Shown one piece after another: positions 2,716 to 60,602 of a stretch of DNA of 64,000 nucleotides. The notes beneath the pieces are model-generated. The model did not search any database and was not told the DNA's origin. It saw nothing but the letters and a program-made list of their open reading frames with translations. The DNA comes from an uncultured Erysipelotrichaceae bacterium (lineage in GTDB: Bacteria > Bacillota_I > Bacilli_A > RF39 > UBA660), in NCBI GenBank assembly GCA_902793315.1, contig CADBCT010000001.1, forward strand, positions 34,727 to 98,726, read 5' to 3'. How positions within the stretch are numbered: position 1 is the stretch's first letter; each line of letters begins with the position of its first letter. A program made the translations under genes and the position numbers.

Positions 2716-2730
2716 AATTCCTCCAAATAA

Positions 2731-2808
2731 AAAGTGCACATGAAAGGTGAATTTTAAGGCTGCTATCTTCCGATTCTGACCTGGTTCAATTTCTTTCATT
2801 GCACGTAT
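2731..2808 (-). ncRNA. ffs: Small signal recognition particle RNA (4.5S/scRNA-type SRP RNA)
   Basis: Minus strand reads GTGCAATGAAAGAAATTGAACCAGGTCAGAATCGGAAGATAGCAGCCTTAAAATTCACCTTTCATGTGCAC. The terminal helix GTGCA(A)ATGAAAG/CTTTCAT(C)GTGCAC closes a hairpin. The ACCAGGTCAG...GGAAG..AGCAGCC core matches the conserved SRP RNA domain IV (E. coli 4.5S: ACCAGGUCAGGUCCGGAAGGAAGCAGCC). A U-tract follows. In B. subtilis scr lies next to dnaX, so the position is syntenic. Confidence 0.6.
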
Positions 2809-2890
2809 ATATTTTATTATAAAAAATAAAAAAAGTAAATATTTGTTATTATTTTTATTTTTTAAGGAATATTTTTGCTATTTTTAGTTA

Positions 2891-3127: not shown

Positions 3128-5575
3128 TTATTGTTCTTCATTAGTTTCTTCAAATGCTTCTTCTTCTTTTTCAACTAAAGCTACTGTGGAAACTTTTTGT
3201 TCATCCTTAAGATTAATTAATCTAACTCCTTGTGTAGCACGTTTTAAAGTAGATACTTGATCTAATGGTAATTTAATAATAATACCGCTATTAGTCATAA
3301 TCATTAAATCTAATGGTGCATCTACTCTTAAACATTTCAATGAAGACATCATACCATTCTTTTCAGTAACATTAAGAGCTTTAACACCTTTACTACCTCT
3401 ATGTGTTAATCTGTATTCATCAACTACTGTTTGTTTTCCATATCCATTTTCTGTTACGATTAATACCATATCACCAGATGATACAACTTCTGCTCCTACT
3501 ACGATAGATCCATCAAGTTCCATACCTTTAACGCCAGAACTACTTCTTCCCATGCATCTAACTTCGTTTTCATTGAATCTAACTAATCTACCATTGCTAG
3601 CACCAATAACTATTTCTCTATTTCCATCAGTACTTTTAACACTGATTAACTCATCATCTTCTTTAAGAACAATAGCTATTTTTCCACTCTTTCTAATATT
3701 ATCAAATTCGTTGATACTAGTACGTTTTACAATTCCTTTTCGAGTTGCAAACATTAAATATTTAGTAAAATCATCATCTTGTTTTATATTTATTATCGAA
3801 CTAACGTTCTCATCTTTCTCTAGTGGTAATAGATTAATTATTGGTAAACCTTTAGATTGTCTAGAGAATTCTGGAATCTCATAACCTTTCATTCTATATA
3901 CTTTACCTTTATTTGAGAAGAATAAGATATAATCATGCGTTGATGATGAAATTAAATGTTCTACAAAATCTTCTTCATTAGTTGCCATACCTTTAATTCC
4001 TACACCACCACGGTTTTGAGTTCTATACGTATCACTCTTTAATCTCTTAATATACCCTTTATTTGTTAAATTAATTACAATATCTTCTTCTGGAATTAAA
4101 GACTCATCTTCAATATATTCAATAGCTGTCATATCAATACTTGTACGTCTTTCATCTCCATATTTTTGTTTAATTTCAAGCAATTCATTCTTAATTACTT
4201 CTAAAATCTTTGCTTCACTAGCTAAAATTGCTTTTAATTCCTCAATAGTTTTTAATAAATCAGTAAGTTCATTTTCAATCTTTTCACGCTCTAAACCTGT
4301 TAATCTACGTAATTTCATCTCTAAAATTGCATTTGATTGAACTTCTGTTAATTTAAACCTACTCATTAATGTATCTTTAGCTATTTCATCGGTTTTAGAT
4401 CCACGAATTACTTTAATTACTTCATCAATATTATCTAAAGCTATTTTTAAGCCTTCTAAAATATGTACTCTTTTTTCTGCTACATCTAGATCAAATCTAG
4501 TTCTTCTAATAATTACTTCCTTTTGATAATCAATATATTTTGCAATAATATCTTTTAATCCAAGAGTTTTAGGAACTCCTTGATCTAACATTAAGAAGAT
4601 AATTCCATAAGATGTTTGAAAAGATGTATGTTTATATAACTTATTTAATACTACTTGAGCATTAGCATCTCTTTTTAATGTAATTGTTATCTTAATACCA
4701 TTCTTTAAATCAGAATGATAATCAGAAATACCTTCAATAGTTTTATTATGAACTAATTCAGCTACTTTATTTTTTAAATCTAAAGTATTTATACCATAAG
4801 GTACTTCATCAATAATAATTTGTTGTTTTCCATTACTTTCTTCAATAGTAGCCCTACTTCTAACTGTAATAGTTCCCCTACCAGTTTCGTAAGCTTTTCT
4901 AATACCACTATTTCCAAGAATAATTGCTCCCGTAGGGAAATCTGGTCCTTTGATATATTTCATTAATTCATCTAATTCAATATCAGGATTATCAATATAT
5001 GCAACACATCCATCAATAACTTCACTTAAGTTATGAGGTGGAATATTTGTTGCCATACCAACAGCTATACCTGTAGTTCCATTAACTAAAATATTAGGAA
5101 ATCTAGATGGTAAAACAACTGGTTCTTTTTCGCTTTCATCAAAATTTGGTACAAAATCAACTGTATTTTTATTGATATTTCTTAATAATTCCAATGATAT
5201 CTTTGATAAACGAGATTCAGTGTAACGCATTGCAGCAGCACCATAACCCTCAATATTACCAAAATTACCATGTCCATCAATTAACATATATCTATAAGAG
5301 AAATCTTGAGCCATACGAACCATAGCTTCATAGATTGAAGAATCTCCATGTGGATGGAAATTACCCATAACTTCTCCGACAGTTTTAGCACTCTTTCTAT
5401 GAGGTTTATCAGGTGTATATCCAGAAGAATACATAGAATATAATATTCTTCTATGAACAGGCTTTAAACCATCTCTTAAGTCTGGAATAGCACGAGCTGT
5501 AATAACACTCATTGAATAGTCTAAAAATGAATCTTGTACTTCTTTTACTATATTGTTATTTTCTAACCTATCCAT
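3128..5575 (-). CDS. gyrA: DNA gyrase subunit A
   Basis: 815 aa. [19 protein letters not shown], catalytic Tyr region, GyrA-box-containing C-terminal beta-pinwheel repeats. Confidence 0.95.
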
Positions 5576-8745: not shown

Positions 8746-9192
8746 TTAACTATTTTTATGGTTTCTTAAAATAATATCTAATCTGGAAGCTCTAGATAAT
8801 TGATTTTCTATCGATCTATATGAACAATTAACTATTATTTCACGATCATTATCAAAAACTATTTTAGTACTATTAAATTCCATTTTCTCAAGTTTTTTAA
8901 CTCTTTTTAAAGATATCCAAACACAATCATCAGAAGATGGTGATGTTGTTGGAAAAACAATTAAATTATCACTATCTTCAATTACTATAGGTACTTTATA
9001 TTCAGCACCTAAAATATTTTTAGCACCATTTTTTCTTCCTTCGTAGGTACTTCCAAAATACTTACAACTTTCTTCCATAATACTAAAAGTTTTTTGATTG
9101 ATAATATAACTGTCATTATCCTCATAAACCAAACTACTTTCCAGATCATTAGGTACTAAAGCTAATGTACCTTTATTAATTTCATATTTCAT
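8746..9192 (-). CDS. comK: ComK-family competence transcription factor
   Basis: From MKYEINKGTLALVPND (ATG preceded by AAGGGGGATAAT). Several blocks align to B. subtilis ComK: YEVNGATIAVLPEE/YEINKGTLALVPND, CRFFGSSYAGRKAGT/CKYFGSTYEGRKNGA, IFLFPTLSSTRPQCGWISH/LIVFPTTSPSSDDCVWISL, NSFENQVYRTAWL/RSIENQLSRASRL. Confidence 0.75.
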   Translation of the reverse strand: MKYEINKGTLALVPNDLESSLVYEDNDSYIINQKTFSIMEESCKYFGSTYEGRKNGAKNILGAEYKVPIVIEDSDNLIVFPTTSPSSDDCVWISLKRVKKLEKMEFNSTKIVFDNDREIIVNCSYRSIENQLSRASRLDIILRNHKNS

Positions 9193-48751: not shown

Positions 48752-49252
48752 ATGAAAAAAATAATTATTATTTCAAGTATAATTATTTCAATTTTAGTAA
48801 TTAATAAAGAAAATGAAATAATTATTCCAAAAGAAGCAATAAGATTTAGAGTAATAGCTAATAGTAATAGTGAACAAGATCAAATAATAAAAAAAGAAAT
48901 TGTAAAAAGTCTATCAAAAGAAATAATTACTCCTAATATTAAGAATATTAATGAAGAAAGAATATTTTTAAAGGAAAATTTACCAAAATTCACAAAAACT
49001 GTGAAAAAAACTCTTACCGATAATAATTATTCTAGTAAATTTGATATAAACTATGGTAAAAACTATTTTCCAGAAAAGACATATAGAAATATTACTTATC
49101 CAGAAGGCGAATATGAATCATTAGTAGTTACTATTGGTAACGGTCAAGGTAAAAACTTTTGGTGTGTGTTATTTCCTCCACTATGCTTAATTGATGAAGA
49201 TACTGAATCATATCCTTCGTTAATTAAAGAAATTATTAATAAGTATTTTTAA
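48752..49252 (+). CDS. spoIIR: Stage II sporulation protein R homologue
   Basis: AIRFRVIANSNSEQDQ (B. subtilis AIRLRILANSDSDQDQ) and TYPEGEYESLVVTIGNGQGKNFWCVLFPPLCLID (VYPAGEYEAILITLGEGDGANWWCVLFPPLCFLD). N-terminal signal peptide. Confidence 0.78.
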   Translation: MKKIIIISSIIISILVINKENEIIIPKEAIRFRVIANSNSEQDQIIKKEIVKSLSKEIITPNIKNINEERIFLKENLPKFTKTVKKTLTDNNYSSKFDINYGKNYFPEKTYRNITYPEGEYESLVVTIGNGQGKNFWCVLFPPLCLIDEDTESYPSLIKEIINKYF

Positions 49253-52729: not shown

Positions 52730-52791
52730 TATATTAATAACGCATTTGATTACTATGACAAGTATTTTGTCATGGCGGAAGGAGAGATAGT

Positions 52792-54695: not shown

Positions 54696-55328
54696 ATGAC
54701 CAAAGAAAGGTTAAAACTGAGATATGTTCCATTAACAATCTTTATATTAGTAATGATTCCTATTATTACACTTGTTGTATTATTTAATGCTAGCTTAAAA
54801 GAAAAAACTGATGTAGATATAAGTAAAGATAACGAGATAATAGAAAGTACTTTGCCTGTAATTAATACCACTATTAAACCAATTGTTCCTTACACTGATC
54901 AAACTGTTAAGATAGGTAAAACATATTATGATTATCTAGCTGAAGAAGCATCTCAAGAAAATGCAATTATAAAGCATGACAATACATATATCCAAAATAC
55001 TGGAATAGATTATGTAGGGAATAATATCTTTGATGTAGTAGCTATCCTTGATGGTACTGTTGAAAAAATAGTAGAGGACGATTCTACAGGTAAGACTATT
55101 GAAATAAAACACGGTGATAATAGTATTTCTATATATGGAAGCTTAAGTGAAATAATAGTTAAAAAAGGTGATACAGTAAATCAAGGGCAACAAATCGGTA
55201 AAAGTGGAACTAATGAATTAGACAAAGAAATGGGAAATCATTTACATTTTGAAGTATATAATAATGGACAAAATATGAATCCAGAAGTATATCTAAATAC
55301 TGAACAGAAGATTAAGGGAGAAGAATAA
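54696..55328 (+). CDS. M23 family metallopeptidase, membrane-anchored
   Basis: N-terminal TM. LytM-domain motifs HxxxD-like (IKHGDN) and HLHFEV. Confidence 0.65.
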   Translation: MTKERLKLRYVPLTIFILVMIPIITLVVLFNASLKEKTDVDISKDNEIIESTLPVINTTIKPIVPYTDQTVKIGKTYYDYLAEEASQENAIIKHDNTYIQNTGIDYVGNNIFDVVAILDGTVEKIVEDDSTGKTIEIKHGDNSISIYGSLSEIIVKKGDTVNQGQQIGKSGTNELDKEMGNHLHFEVYNNGQNMNPEVYLNTEQKIKGEE

Positions 55329-56451: not shown

Positions 56452-57540
56452 GTGGTTATTATGAAATTACAAGTACTAGAAGCATCAAAAATAGTATTAG
56501 TAACATTTGCTTTTTCAGCTATAATAATGTTTTTAATGAAAGGAATAGCTAATCATATTGGGGCTCTAGATGTTCCGAGAACAGAAGAAGGACATAGACA
56601 TATTCATAAGAAAATTACTCCTAAATTAGGAGCTTTAGGTATTTTCTTAGCTTTTCTTTTTGGATATATGCTCTTTGGAGAACAAAGTGTTAGAATGAAT
56701 TCTATTTTAATTGGTAGTTTTATTATTATCTTAACAGGTATTATTGATGATGTTAGACCAATCAGAGCTAGTTATAAAATACTTGGACATTTAGTAGCTG
56801 CTATGGTAATAGTGTTTTATGGAGGAATATTACTAAATAATATTACTGCTTTTGGATTTACTTTTGACTTTGGTATATTAGCTTATCCAATTACTATTTT
56901 ATTTATAATTGCTTGTACAAATATTATTAATTTAATAGATGGTCTTGATGGTTTAAGTGGTGGAATTTGTACTATTTTCTTTATTACTATTGCAATTATC
57001 GGATTTTATCAAGGAAGAGCAGGAAGTTTAGTAATGGTTTTAACTTTGATTATGTTAGGATCTACATTAGGATTCTTATTACATAACTTTTATCCAGCTA
57101 AAATATTTGCTGGAGATTGTGTAACTTTCTTAGGATTTATAATTGCTGTTATTACTCTATTAGAGTTTAAAGGACCGGCATTAATTTCATTCTTTGTACC
57201 GGTTACAATCCTAGGAATTCCAATCTTAGATACATTATTTGCTATTATTAGAAGATTATTAAAAGGGCAACCTCCTTTTAAAGCAGATAAAGAACATTTA
57301 CATCATCAATTATTGGGTATGAATTTTTCTCAAAGAACTACAGTATTAATCATTTATGCAATCAATATACTATTTGCTGCAGCTTCTATTTTCTATACAT
57401 TAAAAGATCCAATAATTGGACAAATACTTTATATAATTATCTTTATTATAGTAATGTGGTTTGTTCTACATACAACAATTATTTATGATAAAAGCAATAT
57501 AAAGCAAAAAAATTTCAAAAAACTATTTCATAAAAGATAA
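56452..57540 (+). CDS. tagO: Undecaprenyl-phosphate N-acetylglucosaminyl-1-phosphate transferase (TagO/WecA, MraY-like GT4)
   Basis: Polytopic membrane protein. IDDVRPI-type DDxxD (IIDDVRP), NLIDGLDGL, FYPAKIFAGDCVTFLGF. Strong similarity to B. subtilis TagO throughout. Confidence 0.82.
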   Translation: MVIMKLQVLEASKIVLVTFAFSAIIMFLMKGIANHIGALDVPRTEEGHRHIHKKITPKLGALGIFLAFLFGYMLFGEQSVRMNSILIGSFIIILTGIIDDVRPIRASYKILGHLVAAMVIVFYGGILLNNITAFGFTFDFGILAYPITILFIIACTNIINLIDGLDGLSGGICTIFFITIAIIGFYQGRAGSLVMVLTLIMLGSTLGFLLHNFYPAKIFAGDCVTFLGFIIAVITLLEFKGPALISFFVPVTILGIPILDTLFAIIRRLLKGQPPFKADKEHLHHQLLGMNFSQRTTVLIIYAINILFAAASIFYTLKDPIIGQILYIIIFIIVMWFVLHTTIIYDKSNIKQKNFKKLFHKR

Positions 57541-57562
57541 AGAACACAAAAGTGTTCTTTTA
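57541..57562 (+). terminator. Terminator after tagO
   Basis: AGAACAC-AAAA-GTGTTCT followed by TTTT. Confidence 0.55.
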
Positions 57563-57605
57563 AAGTGTTTTAAATAATGATAAAATATTATCGGATGTGT
57601 GAGAA

Positions 57606-58334
57606 ATGATAGAATTTATAATATGTGAGGATGAGAAGGATTTCAGAACTAAGTATGAAAATATTTCTGAACAAGTAATGATGAATTATGATTTAGAATA
57701 TAAAATTACTAGTTTTAGTGAGTATTCTTCTAATTGGAAACAAAAGATTAATAACAATAATTTTAAAATATTTATTTTAGATTTAAAGACAAAGCAAGGG
57801 TCTGGATTAGATGCAGCTAGATATATAAGAGAAGAGCTTGATGATTGGCAATCTATGATTATAATTATTACTGCCTATCCAGAATATAAATATGAAGCTT
57901 TAGGTAAAAGATTAATGCTCGTTGATTTTGTCTATAAATTAGATGATTATGAAAATAGACTGAGAAATGCTATTAAAATAAGTTTAAAAAATTTTGATAA
58001 AAGGCCTAATAAATTGAAGTATACTTATAAAAAAGTAGTTTATAATATTGATTATCAAAAAATAATATATATTGAAAAAGAACAAGATAATAAGAGATGT
58101 ATTATAAAAACTAATGATAAGAATTATTATATTCAAGGTAATTTAAATCAAGTAGAAAAATTGTTAGACAAAAGATTCATCAAGTGTAATAGAAGTTATA
58201 TAATTAACTTAGAACAAGTGGAATCATATAACACTAAATCTAATATATTGACTTTCAAAAATGGCAAAACATTATATGCAGTATCTAGAAATAAGAAGAA
58301 GGAGATAGTTAATCATGTTAGAGGTGTTAATTAA
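57606..58334 (+). CDS. agrA: LytTR-family response regulator (AgrA-like)
   Basis: Receiver domain (IFILDLKTKQGSGLDAARYIR) plus C-terminal LytTR DNA-binding domain (YIEKEQDNKRCIIKTNDKNYYIQGNLNQVEKLLDKRFIKCNRSYIINL). Confidence 0.75.
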   Translation: MIEFIICEDEKDFRTKYENISEQVMMNYDLEYKITSFSEYSSNWKQKINNNNFKIFILDLKTKQGSGLDAARYIREELDDWQSMIIIITAYPEYKYEALGKRLMLVDFVYKLDDYENRLRNAIKISLKNFDKRPNKLKYTYKKVVYNIDYQKIIYIEKEQDNKRCIIKTNDKNYYIQGNLNQVEKLLDKRFIKCNRSYIINLEQVESYNTKSNILTFKNGKTLYAVSRNKKKEIVNHVRGVN

Positions 58335-59616
58335 TTTTATCTGTGCATTTATCCTTGTTTTAGCAGGCTTCTATATTATTAAAAAAATTACTGGTAGTAA
58401 TCAGAAAATATCACTTAGAGTGATAGGTTATTTGTTACTTAACAGCAGTTTAATTGCTATAGTTCATTACTTAAATTATAGTTTTATATCACTAATGTTA
58501 AATTTTATTATTAATACTTTAACTTATAAAGGTATTTTTAAAGTTTCCCTTGAAGAAGCAGTAGTTCAAACAGGTATTTTAACTATGTATTTATTGATAT
58601 TTGATACTATATTTGTAATTATTCAAATAAATGCAATACCACTAAAAGTAGTTCAAAATAATATATTAGTTTATTTAATTAGTAATATATTAGTAGTTCT
58701 CATGACTTATTTATCTATTCAAATTAGTTTCATTTATAAAAGATTGAGAAAATTTTATCAAGTATTAGTAAATAAAGATTTAAGATTAAATATGATTTTC
58801 ATTATTTTGATAATTATAACTGCCTGTGGAATTCTTTATAGTTTTATAATAAATAATAAGTTTAATCTTAGGTTTTATACAGATTTAACAGTAATAGCAT
58901 CATTATTAATTATAGGAATAATATTTATTAAAAATAAGGATGTATATAATAAGTTATCCTCTGAATATGATATTTTATTATCTAGTGTTCAAAATTTTGA
59001 AGATTGGATAGAAAAAGAACAATATTTAAGACATGAATATAAAAATCAATTAGCTATTTTATATGGAATATCTTCTGAAAAAGAAGTAAAGAATAAAATA
59101 CAAGAAATAATAGATCAGAATCTTGATATTAATAATGATGTTGTTAAACAATTAAGTATGTTACCTAGAGGAGATTTAAAAGGTATTTTACATTATAAAA
59201 CTATTGTAGCCCAAAAACATAAAATAAAACTTACAGTTGATGTTAGTATTCAAGATAATGGTATTATTAATAAACTTGATAAAAAAGAAATAAATACTTT
59301 AGCTAAGCTAATCGGTATTTTTTATGATAATGCAATTGAAGCAGCTGCTGAAAGTAAAAAAAGAATTGTTCTACTAGAAATATATGAATTGAAAGGTAGA
59401 GTTAATTTTGTAATATCAAATACTTTCAAAAAGAATAGTATTATTAATAGTCAACATGAAAGGGGAATATCTTCTAAAGGTAAAGGTAGAGGAAATGGTT
59501 TATATTTTGCTAATAAAATATTGAATAAAAACAAGTGGATTATTGAAAAAAATGAAATTATTGATAATTACTATGTTGAGACTATTACAGTAATCAAAAA
59601 CACTTCTAAAAAATAG
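58315..59616 (+). CDS. agrC: AgrC-like sensor histidine kinase (HPK10 family)
   Basis: N-terminal 6-7 TM sensor module. His-box region (EYKNQLAILYG), GHKL ATPase with G-box GRGNGL. Overlaps the agrA-like gene by 20 nt. Confidence 0.75.
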   Translation: MLEVLINFICAFILVLAGFYIIKKITGSNQKISLRVIGYLLLNSSLIAIVHYLNYSFISLMLNFIINTLTYKGIFKVSLEEAVVQTGILTMYLLIFDTIFVIIQINAIPLKVVQNNILVYLISNILVVLMTYLSIQISFIYKRLRKFYQVLVNKDLRLNMIFIILIIITACGILYSFIINNKFNLRFYTDLTVIASLLIIGIIFIKNKDVYNKLSSEYDILLSSVQNFEDWIEKEQYLRHEYKNQLAILYGISSEKEVKNKIQEIIDQNLDINNDVVKQLSMLPRGDLKGILHYKTIVAQKHKIKLTVDVSIQDNGIINKLDKKEINTLAKLIGIFYDNAIEAAAESKKRIVLLEIYELKGRVNFVISNTFKKNSIINSQHERGISSKGKGRGNGLYFANKILNKNKWIIEKNEIIDNYYVETITVIKNTSKK

Positions 59617-59621
59617 AAGTG
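59601..59621. terminator. Bidirectional hairpin terminator between convergent agrC and agrD
   Basis: CACTTCT-AAAAAAT-AGAAGTG with T-runs on both strands (TTTTTATT on plus, TTTTTGATTA on minus). Confidence 0.6.
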
Positions 59622-59627
59622 TTTTTA

Positions 59628-59750
59628 TTAATCTAGATTTAAACTAGTAGCATTTGGTTCATCAATAACAAGCCAAATACATCCCATGCTAGCAGCTCCA
59701 GTAGCAAGTACTGCTACAGCAGCTAATAATTTAGCTAATCTCTTTTTCAT
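59628..59750 (-). CDS. agrD: AgrD-like autoinducing peptide precursor (40 aa), not in ORF track
   Basis: Minus-strand ORF MKKRLAKLLAAVAVLATGAASMGCIWLVIDEPNATSLNLD. Strong RBS AAAGGAGGT 6 nt upstream. Amphipathic leader, Cys followed by 4 residues (CIWLV, thiolactone ring size), then an acidic DEP recognition tail as in AgrD. Lies 41 nt downstream of agrB on the same strand. Confidence 0.7.
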   Translation of the reverse strand: MKKRLAKLLAAVAVLATGAASMGCIWLVIDEPNATSLNLD

Positions 59751-59791
59751 AATATACCTCCTTTACTATATGCCAAAATATTAAAATATTT

Positions 59792-60376
59792 TTAGCTGTT
59801 TTTATAATTGTTATATTTAACACCCAGTAATTTATAACACAATGGATTAATTACAATACTTTCAATTATTAAAGAACTTAGTATAGGAACTCTTAACTTA
59901 TCGAAATATATAGCTATTACAAAGAAGAGAACTCCTAAAATTAATGAACATATCTTTCTAATAATACGTTTATTTTTGTTTGTTAAAGGTCTTTTTTCAG
60001 TATCACTAGGTGCAAATAATAGGAATGAGGTAATTGCAAAAATAGAAATAATAATTATTAAAGGTAATTTAATAGTAATTTTTAATAATAAAAAAGGTAA
60101 AATATTAAATTGTAAGATGGATGTTATTAAACATTGCCAACTATTTTTAGCATGTACTCCAAAAGCAAAGAATCTCAAAAAATTAAAGAATAAAAGAGTA
60201 ATAATAACTGTATCTAAGTATTTAAAAATAATGCCTATTAATAAAATAATAAGAACTTTAGAAATAGTTAAATAAATTCCTTCTAAGCCATATCTAATTT
60301 TTAATAGTTCATATTCTGTATAATGAGTATTCTTTTTAATAAAGTTATATGTAGTATTAAGAATAAAATTATTCAT
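59792..60376 (-). CDS. agrB: AgrB-like accessory gene regulator protein B (membrane endopeptidase)
   Basis: 194 aa, about 6 TM. Aligns to S. aureus AgrB: LKIRYGLEG/LQVRLGMQV, FAFGVHAKNSWQCLITSIL/HAHGAHAPSSFWCYVESII (catalytic His and Cys), FAPSDTEKRPL/YAPAATKKKPI. Confidence 0.82.
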   Translation of the reverse strand: MNNFILNTTYNFIKKNTHYTEYELLKIRYGLEGIYLTISKVLIILLIGIIFKYLDTVIITLLFFNFLRFFAFGVHAKNSWQCLITSILQFNILPFLLLKITIKLPLIIIISIFAITSFLLFAPSDTEKRPLTNKNKRIIRKICSLILGVLFFVIAIYFDKLRVPILSSLIIESIVINPLCYKLLGVKYNNYKNS

Positions 60377-60602
60377 ACTATCACCAATTAAAATTATAAG
60401 TAAATAATTAATGACAAATAGAAAAATCTATAAATGGTAAAAAAATAATAAATATATCGATTTTTGTCGAAAAAAATCACAAAAAAAGCAAAAAACAATA
60501 CAAAATATACACTTTTAGGAAATTTTTAATATGAATAGTATTGTTTGTTAAAATGAAATAGCCAAAAATAATAATTGGCGGAAGAGAGGTGTAGCATTAG
60601 TG

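Follow-up and report, generated by a model that had tools for sequence, protein, structure and literature searches.

The 64-kb window analysed here is a stretch of contig CADBCT010000001.1 from an uncultured Erysipelotrichaceae bacterium, and positions 57606-60376 of it hold four genes that look like a peptide quorum-sensing system of the agr type. An earlier note on this DNA had described them as a complete locus, consisting of AgrB, the signal precursor AgrD, an AgrC-like histidine kinase (HK) and an AgrA-like response regulator (RR) of the LytTR type, and our analysis upholds this description. The four open reading frames (ORFs), the ribosome-binding site and the peptide sequence quoted in the note are all present. 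They are arranged in two units, RR-HK and agrBD, which run towards each other, as had also been proposed:

57606-58334, plus strand: RR gene, 242 amino acids (ORF listing)
58315-59616, plus strand: HK gene, 433 amino acids, overlapping the RR gene by 20 bp
59596-59626, both strands: bidirectional hairpin resembling an intrinsic terminator, with a perfect 13-bp stem (59596-59608/59614-59626) and a 5-nt loop
59628-59750, minus strand: agrD, a 40-codon ORF
59764 to 59756, minus strand: Shine-Dalgarno sequence of agrD, AAAGGAGGT, separated by a 5-nt spacer from the ATG at 59750 (minus-strand read)
59792-60376, minus strand: agrB, 194 amino acids

The hairpin between the two units covers the stop codon of the HK gene and ends 2 nt short of that of agrD. 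A simple terminator scan gave no call at this position, since its greedy stem had absorbed the T-run, and it is the folding that shows the hairpin to be real. The predicted free energy is -14.6 kcal/mol (z=-6.3) on the plus strand and -15.4 kcal/mol (z=-5.0) on the minus strand, none of 200 shuffled sequences folds equally well, and an A-run and a T-run flank the stem. Thus, the shared terminator that the earlier note had placed between the convergent operons is supported by folding. agrB and agrD probably form a single operon, because the 41-bp spacer between the stop codon of agrB and agrD, read on the minus strand, contains no terminator.

Three predicted proteins resemble AgrB, AgrC and AgrA

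The earlier note had named the Pfam profile PF04647 as a means of checking the AgrB assignment. The 194-residue protein matches it with an E-value of 4.9e-32 (111 bits, cutoff 23) over profile positions 5-181 of 185, and all 120 of its homologues listed carry the same family. Two residues, His75 and Cys82, do not vary among 12 diverse aligned homologues, which reach down to 44% identity. Moreover, in a BLASTP comparison with what we take to be the AgrB sequence of Staphylococcus aureus, they align with H77 and C84 at the same seven-residue spacing. The catalytic His/Cys context that had been read from the window is thus kept. Hydropathy analysis gives about six hydrophobic segments. A search of the PDB sequences with AgrB detected no solved AgrB structure, and the catalytic residues were assessed by alignment. 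Taken together, AgrB is predicted to be a polytopic membrane cysteine endopeptidase and macrocyclase that uses His75 and Cys82 for catalysis.

The HK has about 6-7 hydrophobic segments within residues 1-205 and contains an H-box (LRHEYKNQL, with His240), an N-box (DNAIEA) and a G-box (GRGNGL). Compared box by box with S. aureus AgrC, these read RHEYKN/RHDYVN, DNAIEA/DNAIEA and GRGNGL/GRGLGL, and the best PDB relatives of the protein are 6E52 and 4BXI, in which the kinase module of S. aureus AgrC was solved (E about 2e-9). The NCBIfam AgrC model matches residues 35-421 with an E-value of 1.5e-10, at 40.9 bits below its cutoff of 500, and the orthologue in the related locus L001 matches PF14501 (HATPase_c_5, E=2.8e-8). 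Judged by its motifs and its nearest structures, the HK is an AgrC-like (HPK10-type) polytopic sensor histidine kinase.

The RR combines a LytTR domain (PF04397, E=3.9e-19) with a Response_reg domain (E=3.8e-6) that at 27.5 bits lies slightly below the cutoff of 30.2, and it matches the NCBIfam AgrA model at E=6.7e-17, under the cutoff. Its best PDB relatives are LytTR structures of S. aureus AgrA (E=1.5e-10). The receiver motifs are in place, with an acidic pocket (E8/D9), the phospho-acceptor D59, T89 and K111. We therefore classify the protein as an AgrA-like response regulator composed of a receiver and a LytTR DNA-binding domain.

The 40-codon ORF very probably encodes AgrD

The spacer between agrB and the hairpin holds the 40-codon ORF, which the earlier note had interpreted as an unannotated AgrD gene. 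It has indeed neither an accession nor a name in NCBI-derived data. The accessions of AgrB (MBQ3297177.1) and of the RR (MBQ3297179.1) leave one number between them, for the HK, and thus none for the peptide. The precursor is laid out as follows:

minus strand, MKKRLAKLLAAVAVLATGAASMG / CIWLVI / DEPNATSLNLD: leader, predicted six-residue core (codons 59681 to 59664) and follower, whose DEP is encoded at 59663 to 59655

An ORF of this size next to an orphan agrB could have arisen by chance, and two observations would fit such an origin. One is that it is missing from the NCBI annotation. The other is that the window peptide has no match at E<=1 to either AgrD model, PF05931 of Pfam or TIGR04223 of NCBIfam, so that the model search on which the earlier note had staked its AgrD claim is negative for the peptide itself. 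It is overridden by the orthologues. In a set of 35 diverse syntenic AgrD orthologues, 27 match TIGR04223 (best E-value 1.9e-7) and nine match PF05931 (best 1.6e-4). A profile search with the alignment of the AgrD peptides against 1.84 billion representatives returned 48 clusters, all of the C-x5-DEP type, and found no bridge to staphylococcal AgrD. The bridge from the window peptide to known AgrD proteins is provided by the syntenic orthologues scanned against TIGR04223.

Position, length and codon-level selection of the ORF are also not those of a chance product. The exact window peptide is found on 160 public contigs. Together with 48 further homologues it forms a family in which 45 of 49 members are exactly 40 amino acids long, and which shows an invariant LATGAASMGC block, an invariant Glu-Pro and hypervariable residues 27-29. 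An AgrB-profile scan of GTDB species representatives and metagenome contigs yielded 87 related loci (numbered L001 onwards), in 83 of which a homologous peptide gene lies directly 3' of agrB on the same strand; the other four contigs stop within about 130 bp past agrB. Finally, we compared non-synonymous and synonymous variation (pN/pS) in 32 distinct 40-codon genes. By this crude and uncorrected measure, pN/pS is highest in the core (0.58), followed by the leader (0.37), and falls to 0.02 over Asp-Glu-Pro and to 0 at Cys24. Thus, agrD is translated, its core is the least constrained part, and Cys24 and the DEP motif are under strong purifying selection. Conservation of frame and position, the exact length, the codon-level selection, the AgrD matches of the orthologues and the strong ribosome-binding site effectively refute a chance origin of the ORF. 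The small ORF can be accepted as the AgrD precursor that the earlier note had seen in it, and we are highly confident that the locus is an agr-type system with a real AgrD.

The signal is probably a six-residue ring without a tail

The register of the family is a direct observation. Among 126 distinct peptides, the position of Cys24 is occupied by Cys in 123 and by Thr in three, and it is followed by five variable hydrophobic residues without any insertion or deletion. The follower that comes after this block begins with Asp in 122/126, Glu in 126/126 and Pro in 121/126 peptides. The family register therefore is C-x5-[DE]-E-P with always five residues between the Cys and the follower, which sets it apart from the C-x4 class. 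The earlier note had read the peptide as a single Cys followed by exactly four residues, CIWLV, giving a five-membered ring. This parse was imposed by the reader, since no boundary is marked after Val28. The acidic, DEP-containing C-terminal tail that it had described does stand, being conserved in the family, with a pN/pS of 0.02 at DEP in the 32 genes compared.

The same register is found in an AgrD whose product is known. The precursor of Clostridium acetobutylicum, AAK78064.1, reads ...GK-C-VLVTL-YEPKMPEELL (PMC10301443 supplement). From the Cys through E-P its alignment with the window peptide and the relatives of the latter is gapless, and some relatives even read C-PIFVI-DEPKMP. The autoinducing peptide (AIP) of C. 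acetobutylicum was predicted to be six-membered, and mass spectrometry (MS) confirms a six-membered macrocycle without an N-terminal extension (PMC8251862). Rc-AIP1 of Ruminiclostridium cellulolyticum (CWFWSY) likewise consists of six residues and is tail-less (PMC8251862), and tail-less clostridial AIPs undergo an S-to-N acyl shift to homodetic cyclopeptides (PMC8251862; PMC10301443). Because C-x5-DEP aligns without gaps to the MS-verified six-membered AIP of C. acetobutylicum, we prefer a six-membered tail-less core, cyclo(CIWLVI), to a CIWLV ring and regard it as the probable signal.

Read as a canonical AIP of the staphylococcal style, the earlier note's proposal would amount to a five-membered CIWLV thiolactone with an exocyclic tail ending in MG, released by cleavage between Val28 and Ile29 and autoinduced via LytTR boxes. 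It would agree with most characterised AIPs, in which rings are five-membered (introduction of PMC8251862). The variability of position 29 would suit it too, as the first residue of a follower can vary. We nevertheless consider it improbable. The variable block is exactly five residues long and sharply bounded by Asp30 across the 126 peptides, in the register of the six-ring precursor of C. acetobutylicum, and conserved small residues at -3 and -1 abut the Cys, which argues for cleavage at the Cys itself.

These small residues are part of a leader that has a Lys-rich N-terminus, a hydrophobic core and an A-S-x-G motif directly before the Cys (A-S-M-G in the window). In the 126 peptides, position -4 is Ala in 113, position -3 is Ser in 111 and position -1 is Gly or Ala in 122, and in 113 the residues at -3 and -1 are both small, in line with the rule for type I signal peptidase. 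The leader thus looks like a secretion signal and not like a staphylococcal-type amphipathic helix, contrary to the amphipathic leader that had been proposed. Because A-S-x-G stands right before the Cys of this signal-like leader, the cut most likely falls directly before Cys24, made by type I signal peptidase, and would leave no exocyclic tail, the "...MG" of the earlier parse included.

Cys24 might alternatively be the lipid-attachment site of a tiny lipoprotein, or of a lipidated AIP, matured by Lgt and Lsp, instead of or beside acting as the thiolactone nucleophile. A permissive PROSITE-style lipoprotein pattern is fitted by 106 of the 126 peptides, there are weak matches to lipoprotein signal models, and a subset of AIP precursors is reported to carry signals of the signal peptidase II (SPII) type, where for single-Cys cases the choice between a lipidated and a thiolactone-blocked Cys was left undecided (PMC13056109). 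The C-x5-DEP family is such a single-Cys case. However, the classical lipobox with Leu, Val or Ile at -3 ([LVI][ASTVI][GAS]C) occurs in 0/126 peptides, Ser being dominant at this position. Furthermore, the single Cys is required for the chemistry of AgrB, AgrD processing alone explains the strict co-occurrence with AgrB and the DEP follower, and three members have a Thr for the Cys, which Lgt cannot diacylglyceryl-modify. We therefore judge the lipoprotein pathway to be very unlikely and retain cleavage by type I signal peptidase.

Two kinds of variants among the 126 peptides are worth recording. The three with Thr in place of the conserved Cys, such as P0216 and P0217 (…IGTAWWYFDEP and …VGTPWILTDEP), would imply a threonine-derived lactone. 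Serine lactones are known, and we know of no precedent for a threonine lactone in agr systems. A second Cys is present in 30 peptides. In seven of these it is the last ring residue, right before DEP, and thus the residue whose carboxyl would form the thioester (e.g., P0035, CIWCLC-DEP, and L046, CMWWVC-DEP).

The agrB promoter carries a conserved array of Spo0A-type boxes

The upstream regions of the two operons contain the following elements:

57539-57560, plus strand: terminator hairpin of the upstream glycosyltransferase-4 gene (terminator scan; -11.4 kcal/mol, z=-4.2), conserved in relatives
57578-57586, plus strand: extended -10 element TGaTAAAAT of the RR-HK operon (promoter scan), TGnTAAAAT in the window and L008-L010, TAGAAT in L011
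60393-60398, minus strand: -10 element TATAAT of agrBD (minus-strand sequence), TATAAT in 8/9 lineages and TATATT in L001
60455-60471, minus strand: tandem 0A-box-like element TTCGACA-aaa-ATCGATA, a candidate operator that starts 73 bp upstream of the agrBD -10

The hairpin at 57539-57560 insulates the RR-HK operon. The 65 bp before the RR gene (57541-57605) contain this terminator and the extended -10 only, with no LytTR boxes and no room for them. The agrBD promoter lacks a good -35 and, because of this, is probably activator-dependent.

Of the two boxes in the element at 60455-60471, the one at 60465-60471 is perfect and the other, at a distance of 10 bp, is degenerate. The sequence TTTTCGACAAAA is the most conserved element upstream of agrB and is invariant in nine aligned lineages. 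The box core is found in 45 of the 87 loci, 86-115 bp ahead of the ATG and in agrB-sense orientation, usually in two to three copies with a 10-bp period, and only two further copies of it are found elsewhere in the 87 loci. The perfect 7-mer TTCGACA is present in 49 of 84 distinct intergenic regions, while 637 kb of other sequence contain 19 copies. The first copy is placed 73-76 bp before the agrB -10 in 35/39 lineages and another helical turn away in three more, and its spacing to the divergent csp gene is less strict. In an unbiased test for repeats, those with a 10-bp period (at least 8/9 matches) occur upstream of agrB in 29/84 regions versus 16/420 shuffles.

The earlier note had suggested a search for paired LytTR boxes in front of both operons, and none were found. 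The 9-12-9 repeats, about 21 bp apart, are found neither upstream of agrB nor upstream of the RR gene. Repeats of period 19-23 upstream of agrB are in mild excess (14/84 regions versus 27/420 shuffles, at least 8/9 matches), in contrast to the strong 10-bp signal of the TGTCGAA boxes. Together with the lack of room before the RR gene, this also speaks against the autoinduction that formed part of the five-membered ring proposal.

Two 7-bp boxes separated by 3 bp are the binding mode of Spo0A dimers, for example at abrB, and the spacing here fits such sites. TGTCGAA, which TTCGACA reads on the opposite strand, is the core of the Spo0A 0A-box and is common to Bacillus and Clostridioides difficile (PMC3485338). 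In C. difficile, perfect 0A boxes are found 67-82 bp upstream of the ATG at directly bound targets (PMC3485338). By comparison, the LytTR regulator RgaR of C. difficile activates agrB1D1 through repeats 21 bp apart (PMC10602386). Spo0A is favoured over the RR of the locus because the box is invariant across lineages whose RRs are only about 50% identical. On these grounds we see an even chance that Spo0A binds the boxes in the agrB promoter.

The LytTR regulator encoded by the locus is another candidate for the 10-bp tandem repeats. The system would then be autoinducing and comK part of the agr regulon, in a manner resembling the control of competence by ComE. Recognition sequences of LytTR proteins are diverse. 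The array is moreover phase-locked to the agrB -10, and the only other tandem copy in the 64 kb lies upstream of comK. Nevertheless, the characterised RgaR and VirR sites, in which a G at -51 and at -72 is critical, have a 21-bp period, the 7-mer is identical to the Spo0A core (PMC3485338), and the invariance of the box despite the divergence of the RR is difficult to reconcile with binding by the latter. Control by the LytTR regulator of the locus is the main alternative, though the less likely one, and Spo0A is our preferred candidate.

Other assignments of the conserved promoter element were rejected. It is no -35 hexamer, as the -10 downstream of it is not conserved, and in a by-eye comparison DnaA, CodY and ComK boxes were all poorer matches than the 0A box. 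We also note that the csp upstream or leader region at 60500-60599 (alignment A4, columns 9-66) is long and highly conserved, with blocks such as CACCTC..TTCTACCA and TTGG..ATTT.ATTTTA.CAAA (agrB-sense strand). It is probably a cold-shock 5' untranslated region.

Sporulation and competence genes lie in the same window

Two genes of the window point to sporulation. A SpoIIR gene (48752-49252; PF09551, E=5.7e-38) adjoins prfA-prmC, the same neighbourhood as in B. subtilis. A SpoIIQ-like M23 peptidase (54696-55328), which precedes mreB/mbl, has NF053738 as its full-length best match (6.8e-43) and an intact HxH motif. Because SpoIIR and the SpoIIQ-like protein are encoded in the window, the lineage carries endospore-formation genes. 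Several records label it "Mycoplasma" or "Tenericutes", and the longest locus-bearing contig is about 1.07 Mb. Together this suggests an overlooked endospore-forming clade, possibly with a small genome. In tblastn searches of the window and the 87 loci with B. subtilis Spo0A, SpoVT, SigF and SpoIIID sequences, the one match was to SpoIIID, in L063.

In front of a ComK gene (8746-9192, minus strand; PF06338, E=5.6e-45), itself located just downstream of dnaN, stand three 10-bp repeats in tandem, TTCTACAAAA TTCGACAAAT TTCTACAAAT (9277 to 9248, minus strand), which are of the 0A type. With up to two mismatches allowed, the tandem box pattern has three matches in the window where 0.15 are expected: one is the agrB promoter, two overlapping ones are the comK array, and there are none elsewhere in the 64 kb.

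An Rfam search of the agr locus found no known RNA family and no RNAIII-like RNA. Elsewhere in the window, two matches reach the gathering level, a bacterial small signal recognition particle RNA (2721-2813, minus strand, 54.8 bits) and an L31-Firmicutes ribosomal leader (52753-52784, plus strand, 36.4 bits).

Gene order is conserved in a clade whose signals diverge

In all loci that are long enough, the gene order is M23 peptidase, MreB, glycosyltransferase-4, then RR and HK converging with agrD and agrB, then Csp, Hpf and SecA. At least 80 species-level genomes keep the convergent order at this chromosomal position, and SecA identity to the window drops to about 60% across the loci that share it. 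We infer that the convergent, RR-first order is the ancestral one of a deep clade of uncultured Bacilli from gut and rumen. The "unusual gene order" of the earlier note is therefore unusual in the sense that it differs from staphylococcal agrBDCA, but within the clade it is the rule. Records of this clade are labelled Bacilli bacterium, Mycoplasma sp. CAG:877, Tenericutes, Candidatus Faecenecus, Faecimonas or Onthousia, and NCBI taxonomy places Candidatus Faecenecus in Bacillota incertae sedis.

The nearest GTDB species, represented by a metagenome-assembled genome (MAG) from sheep (L008), shows where the locus changes. Flanking proteins are 91-97% and the RR 90% identical to those of the window, compared to 70% for AgrB, 56% for the HK as a whole and 28-45% for HK residues 41-200. 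The two peptides differ mainly in the core (CVWFIV versus CIWLVI). The divergence follows the staphylococcal "specificity group" pattern, here between close species.

Several loci deviate in detail. In L001-L003 the convergent junction is widened (5124-5550) by a spacer of about 430 bp with a 41-amino-acid ORF (MIFEKYENLNIARCFLEEWHYVGIVGLNK...), and in L036 and L074 the HK and RR genes lie about 1.4-1.6 kb farther from agrD than usual. A number of public MAG records carry the Bacilli-type locus under other labels, Bacteroidota and Negativicutes taxa included, namely Muribaculaceae (L010, L027, L085), Acidaminococcus fermentans (L042) and Clostridia/Clostridium (L040, L062, L074, L086). Where measured, SecA of these MAGs is 72-88% identical to that of the window, and the contigs are probably mis-binned or mislabelled. 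Finally, a phage-type integrase gene lies directly past secA in L002, L003 and L005 (positions 1-560), one of these genomes being 100% identical to the window here, and other genomes have a Sua5/YciO gene or a helix-turn-helix gene in its place. This suggests an integration hotspot just beyond the right end of the window.

A pathway in which signal production may depend on Spo0A

The observations can be combined into a pathway. agrB and agrD would be transcribed from the TATAAT promoter that has no good -35, with the tandem TGTCGAA boxes about 73 bp upstream of the -10. AgrB would recognise the DEP follower, cleave between Ile29 and Asp30 through His75/Cys82 and close a thiolactone between Cys24 and Ile29 to give CIWLVI. 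The signal-like leader with its A-S-M-G end would be removed at the Cys24 bond, most likely by type I signal peptidase. As in tail-less clostridial AIPs, the freed alpha-amine would next cause an S-to-N acyl shift, from which a homodetic cyclic hexapeptide results. The hypervariable membrane domain of the HK would sense this signal and the HK would phosphorylate the LytTR regulator at Asp59. The RR-HK operon itself is apparently expressed from a simple extended -10 promoter. Signal production would probably be under the control of Spo0A~P, or of a different factor with affinity for the boxes, and not of classical AgrA autoinduction. In this scheme, the sites of cleavage, the acyl shift, the protein that binds the boxes and the extent of the regulon are all predictions.

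Overall, we consider an agr-type peptide quorum-sensing system, organised in two convergent operons in uncultured gut Bacilli with sporulation genes, to be the best explanation of the locus, with a probability of roughly 80%. Several points weigh against it. The Pfam scan of the window HK gave zero matches, HATPase families and PF14501 included. The AgrD membership of the window peptide is transitive, via orthologue homology and gene context. Ring size and loss of the tail follow from the alignment to characterised clostridial precursors, and AgrB could cleave one residue upstream of DEP. As to regulation, the 0A boxes share their intergenic region with the divergent csp gene, the more distant half of the clade lacks them or has degenerate versions, and the LytTR regulator of the locus could itself bind the 10-bp repeats. 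Moreover, SpoIIR and the SpoIIQ-like protein score under the NCBIfam curated cutoffs (137 versus 152 and 147 versus 250 bits, respectively), and the search for spo0A, made with a B. subtilis query in the 64-kb window and the 87 loci, gave no match there and speaks neither for nor against a spo0A gene genome-wide.

A more far-reaching version of the scheme would give the Cys a double duty. The leader, a true lipoprotein-type or Sec signal, would be cut exactly at Cys24, and AgrB would close the ring head-to-tail on the alpha-amine set free, yielding a homodetic hexapeptide whose thiol is either free or diacylglyceryl-modified, so that it is tethered to the membrane or carried by vesicles, and its synthesis would be switched directly by Spo0A~P. 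We regard this combination as highly improbable. If it were true, the signal would report neighbours that enter sporulation or competence and not density alone, the single-Cys SPII-AIP question of PMC13056109 would be settled, and the order customary in clostridia, with agr upstream of Spo0A, would be inverted.

AIPs of the human microbiome have already been mined at large scale (PMC11953309). What the present locus adds is an agr system that is coherent across a whole clade of abundant but uncultured Bacilli of the gut and rumen, together with about 126 distinct natural precursor variants of the C-x5-DEP design. An alignment of this AgrD family would improve the detection of AgrD in genome annotation, given that both the Pfam and the NCBIfam models miss the window precursor. 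The predicted signals, such as cyclo(CIWLVI) and cyclo(CVWFIV), can be synthesised and used to probe signalling and cross-inhibition among related gut strains. Finally, should the boxes work as predicted, signal production would lie downstream of Spo0A, alongside comK, which would link quorum sensing, sporulation and competence in a testable manner.

Comparison with known agr systems

The locus shares with S. aureus agrBDCA the same four components and the His/Cys spacing of AgrB, and AgrC and AgrA are the best solved relatives of its HK and RR. In both systems the regulator is conserved, whereas hypervariability affects AgrB, the sensor domain and the core of the AIP. Unlike the single agrBDCA operon, the locus consists of two convergent operons (RR-HK and agrBD). 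Its precursor has a signal-peptide-like leader instead of an amphipathic helix and C-x5 instead of C-x4 before the acidic follower, and neither an RNAIII-like RNA nor AgrA-type 9-12-9 boxes were detected in it.

The Agr1/RgaS-RgaR system of C. difficile also keeps agrBD separate from an AgrC-like kinase and a LytTR regulator and is linked to sporulation (PMC10602386). There, however, kinase and regulator are orphans encoded elsewhere and the repeats are spaced by 21 bp, whereas the window has an adjacent pair and Spo0A-type boxes with a 10-bp period. The SPII-type AIP precursors (van der Donk lab, PNAS 2026, PMC13056109) resemble the window precursor in having a secretion- or lipoprotein-like leader and a single Cys at the predicted cleavage site. 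They differ in position -3, where the family described here has Ser and not Leu, Val or Ile, which fits signal peptidase I better than Lsp.

The Agr system of C. acetobutylicum, whose AIP is designated "R6T0", has, as here, separate agrBD and agrCA operons (PMC10301443) and an identical precursor register, C-x5-[Y/D]-E-P-K-M-P. Its AIP is six-membered and tail-less by MS (PMC8251862). C. acetobutylicum is a spore-former in which agr is tied to sporulation. Its leader is hydrophilic (…KIGEQANGK-C), in contrast to the signal-peptide-like leader of the window. Six-ring clostridial agr loci come with a LanM-like effector. The neighbouring genes that were examined include none of this kind, and no homologue of CA_C0082 is adjacent here; moreover, the operons are convergent and the host is an uncultured member of the gut Bacilli. 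Rc-AIP1 of R. cellulolyticum (cAIP, CWFWSY) has a six-residue, aromatic/hydrophobic core that begins with Cys and carries no N-terminal extension, and some distant syntenic relatives of the window peptide have CWF-type cores (CWFGYY, CWFSYF). From this likeness, the putative product of the window locus would be expected to rearrange in the same manner, through an S-to-N acyl shift, into a homodetic cyclopeptide.

Mechanistically, the locus is an agr system, and neither the leader, the convergent operons and the host nor the Spo0A-type boxes place it outside what is known of agr. Its closest characterised counterparts are the C. acetobutylicum and R. cellulolyticum systems, with six-membered, tail-less, homodetic AIPs and separate agrBD and agrCA operons.

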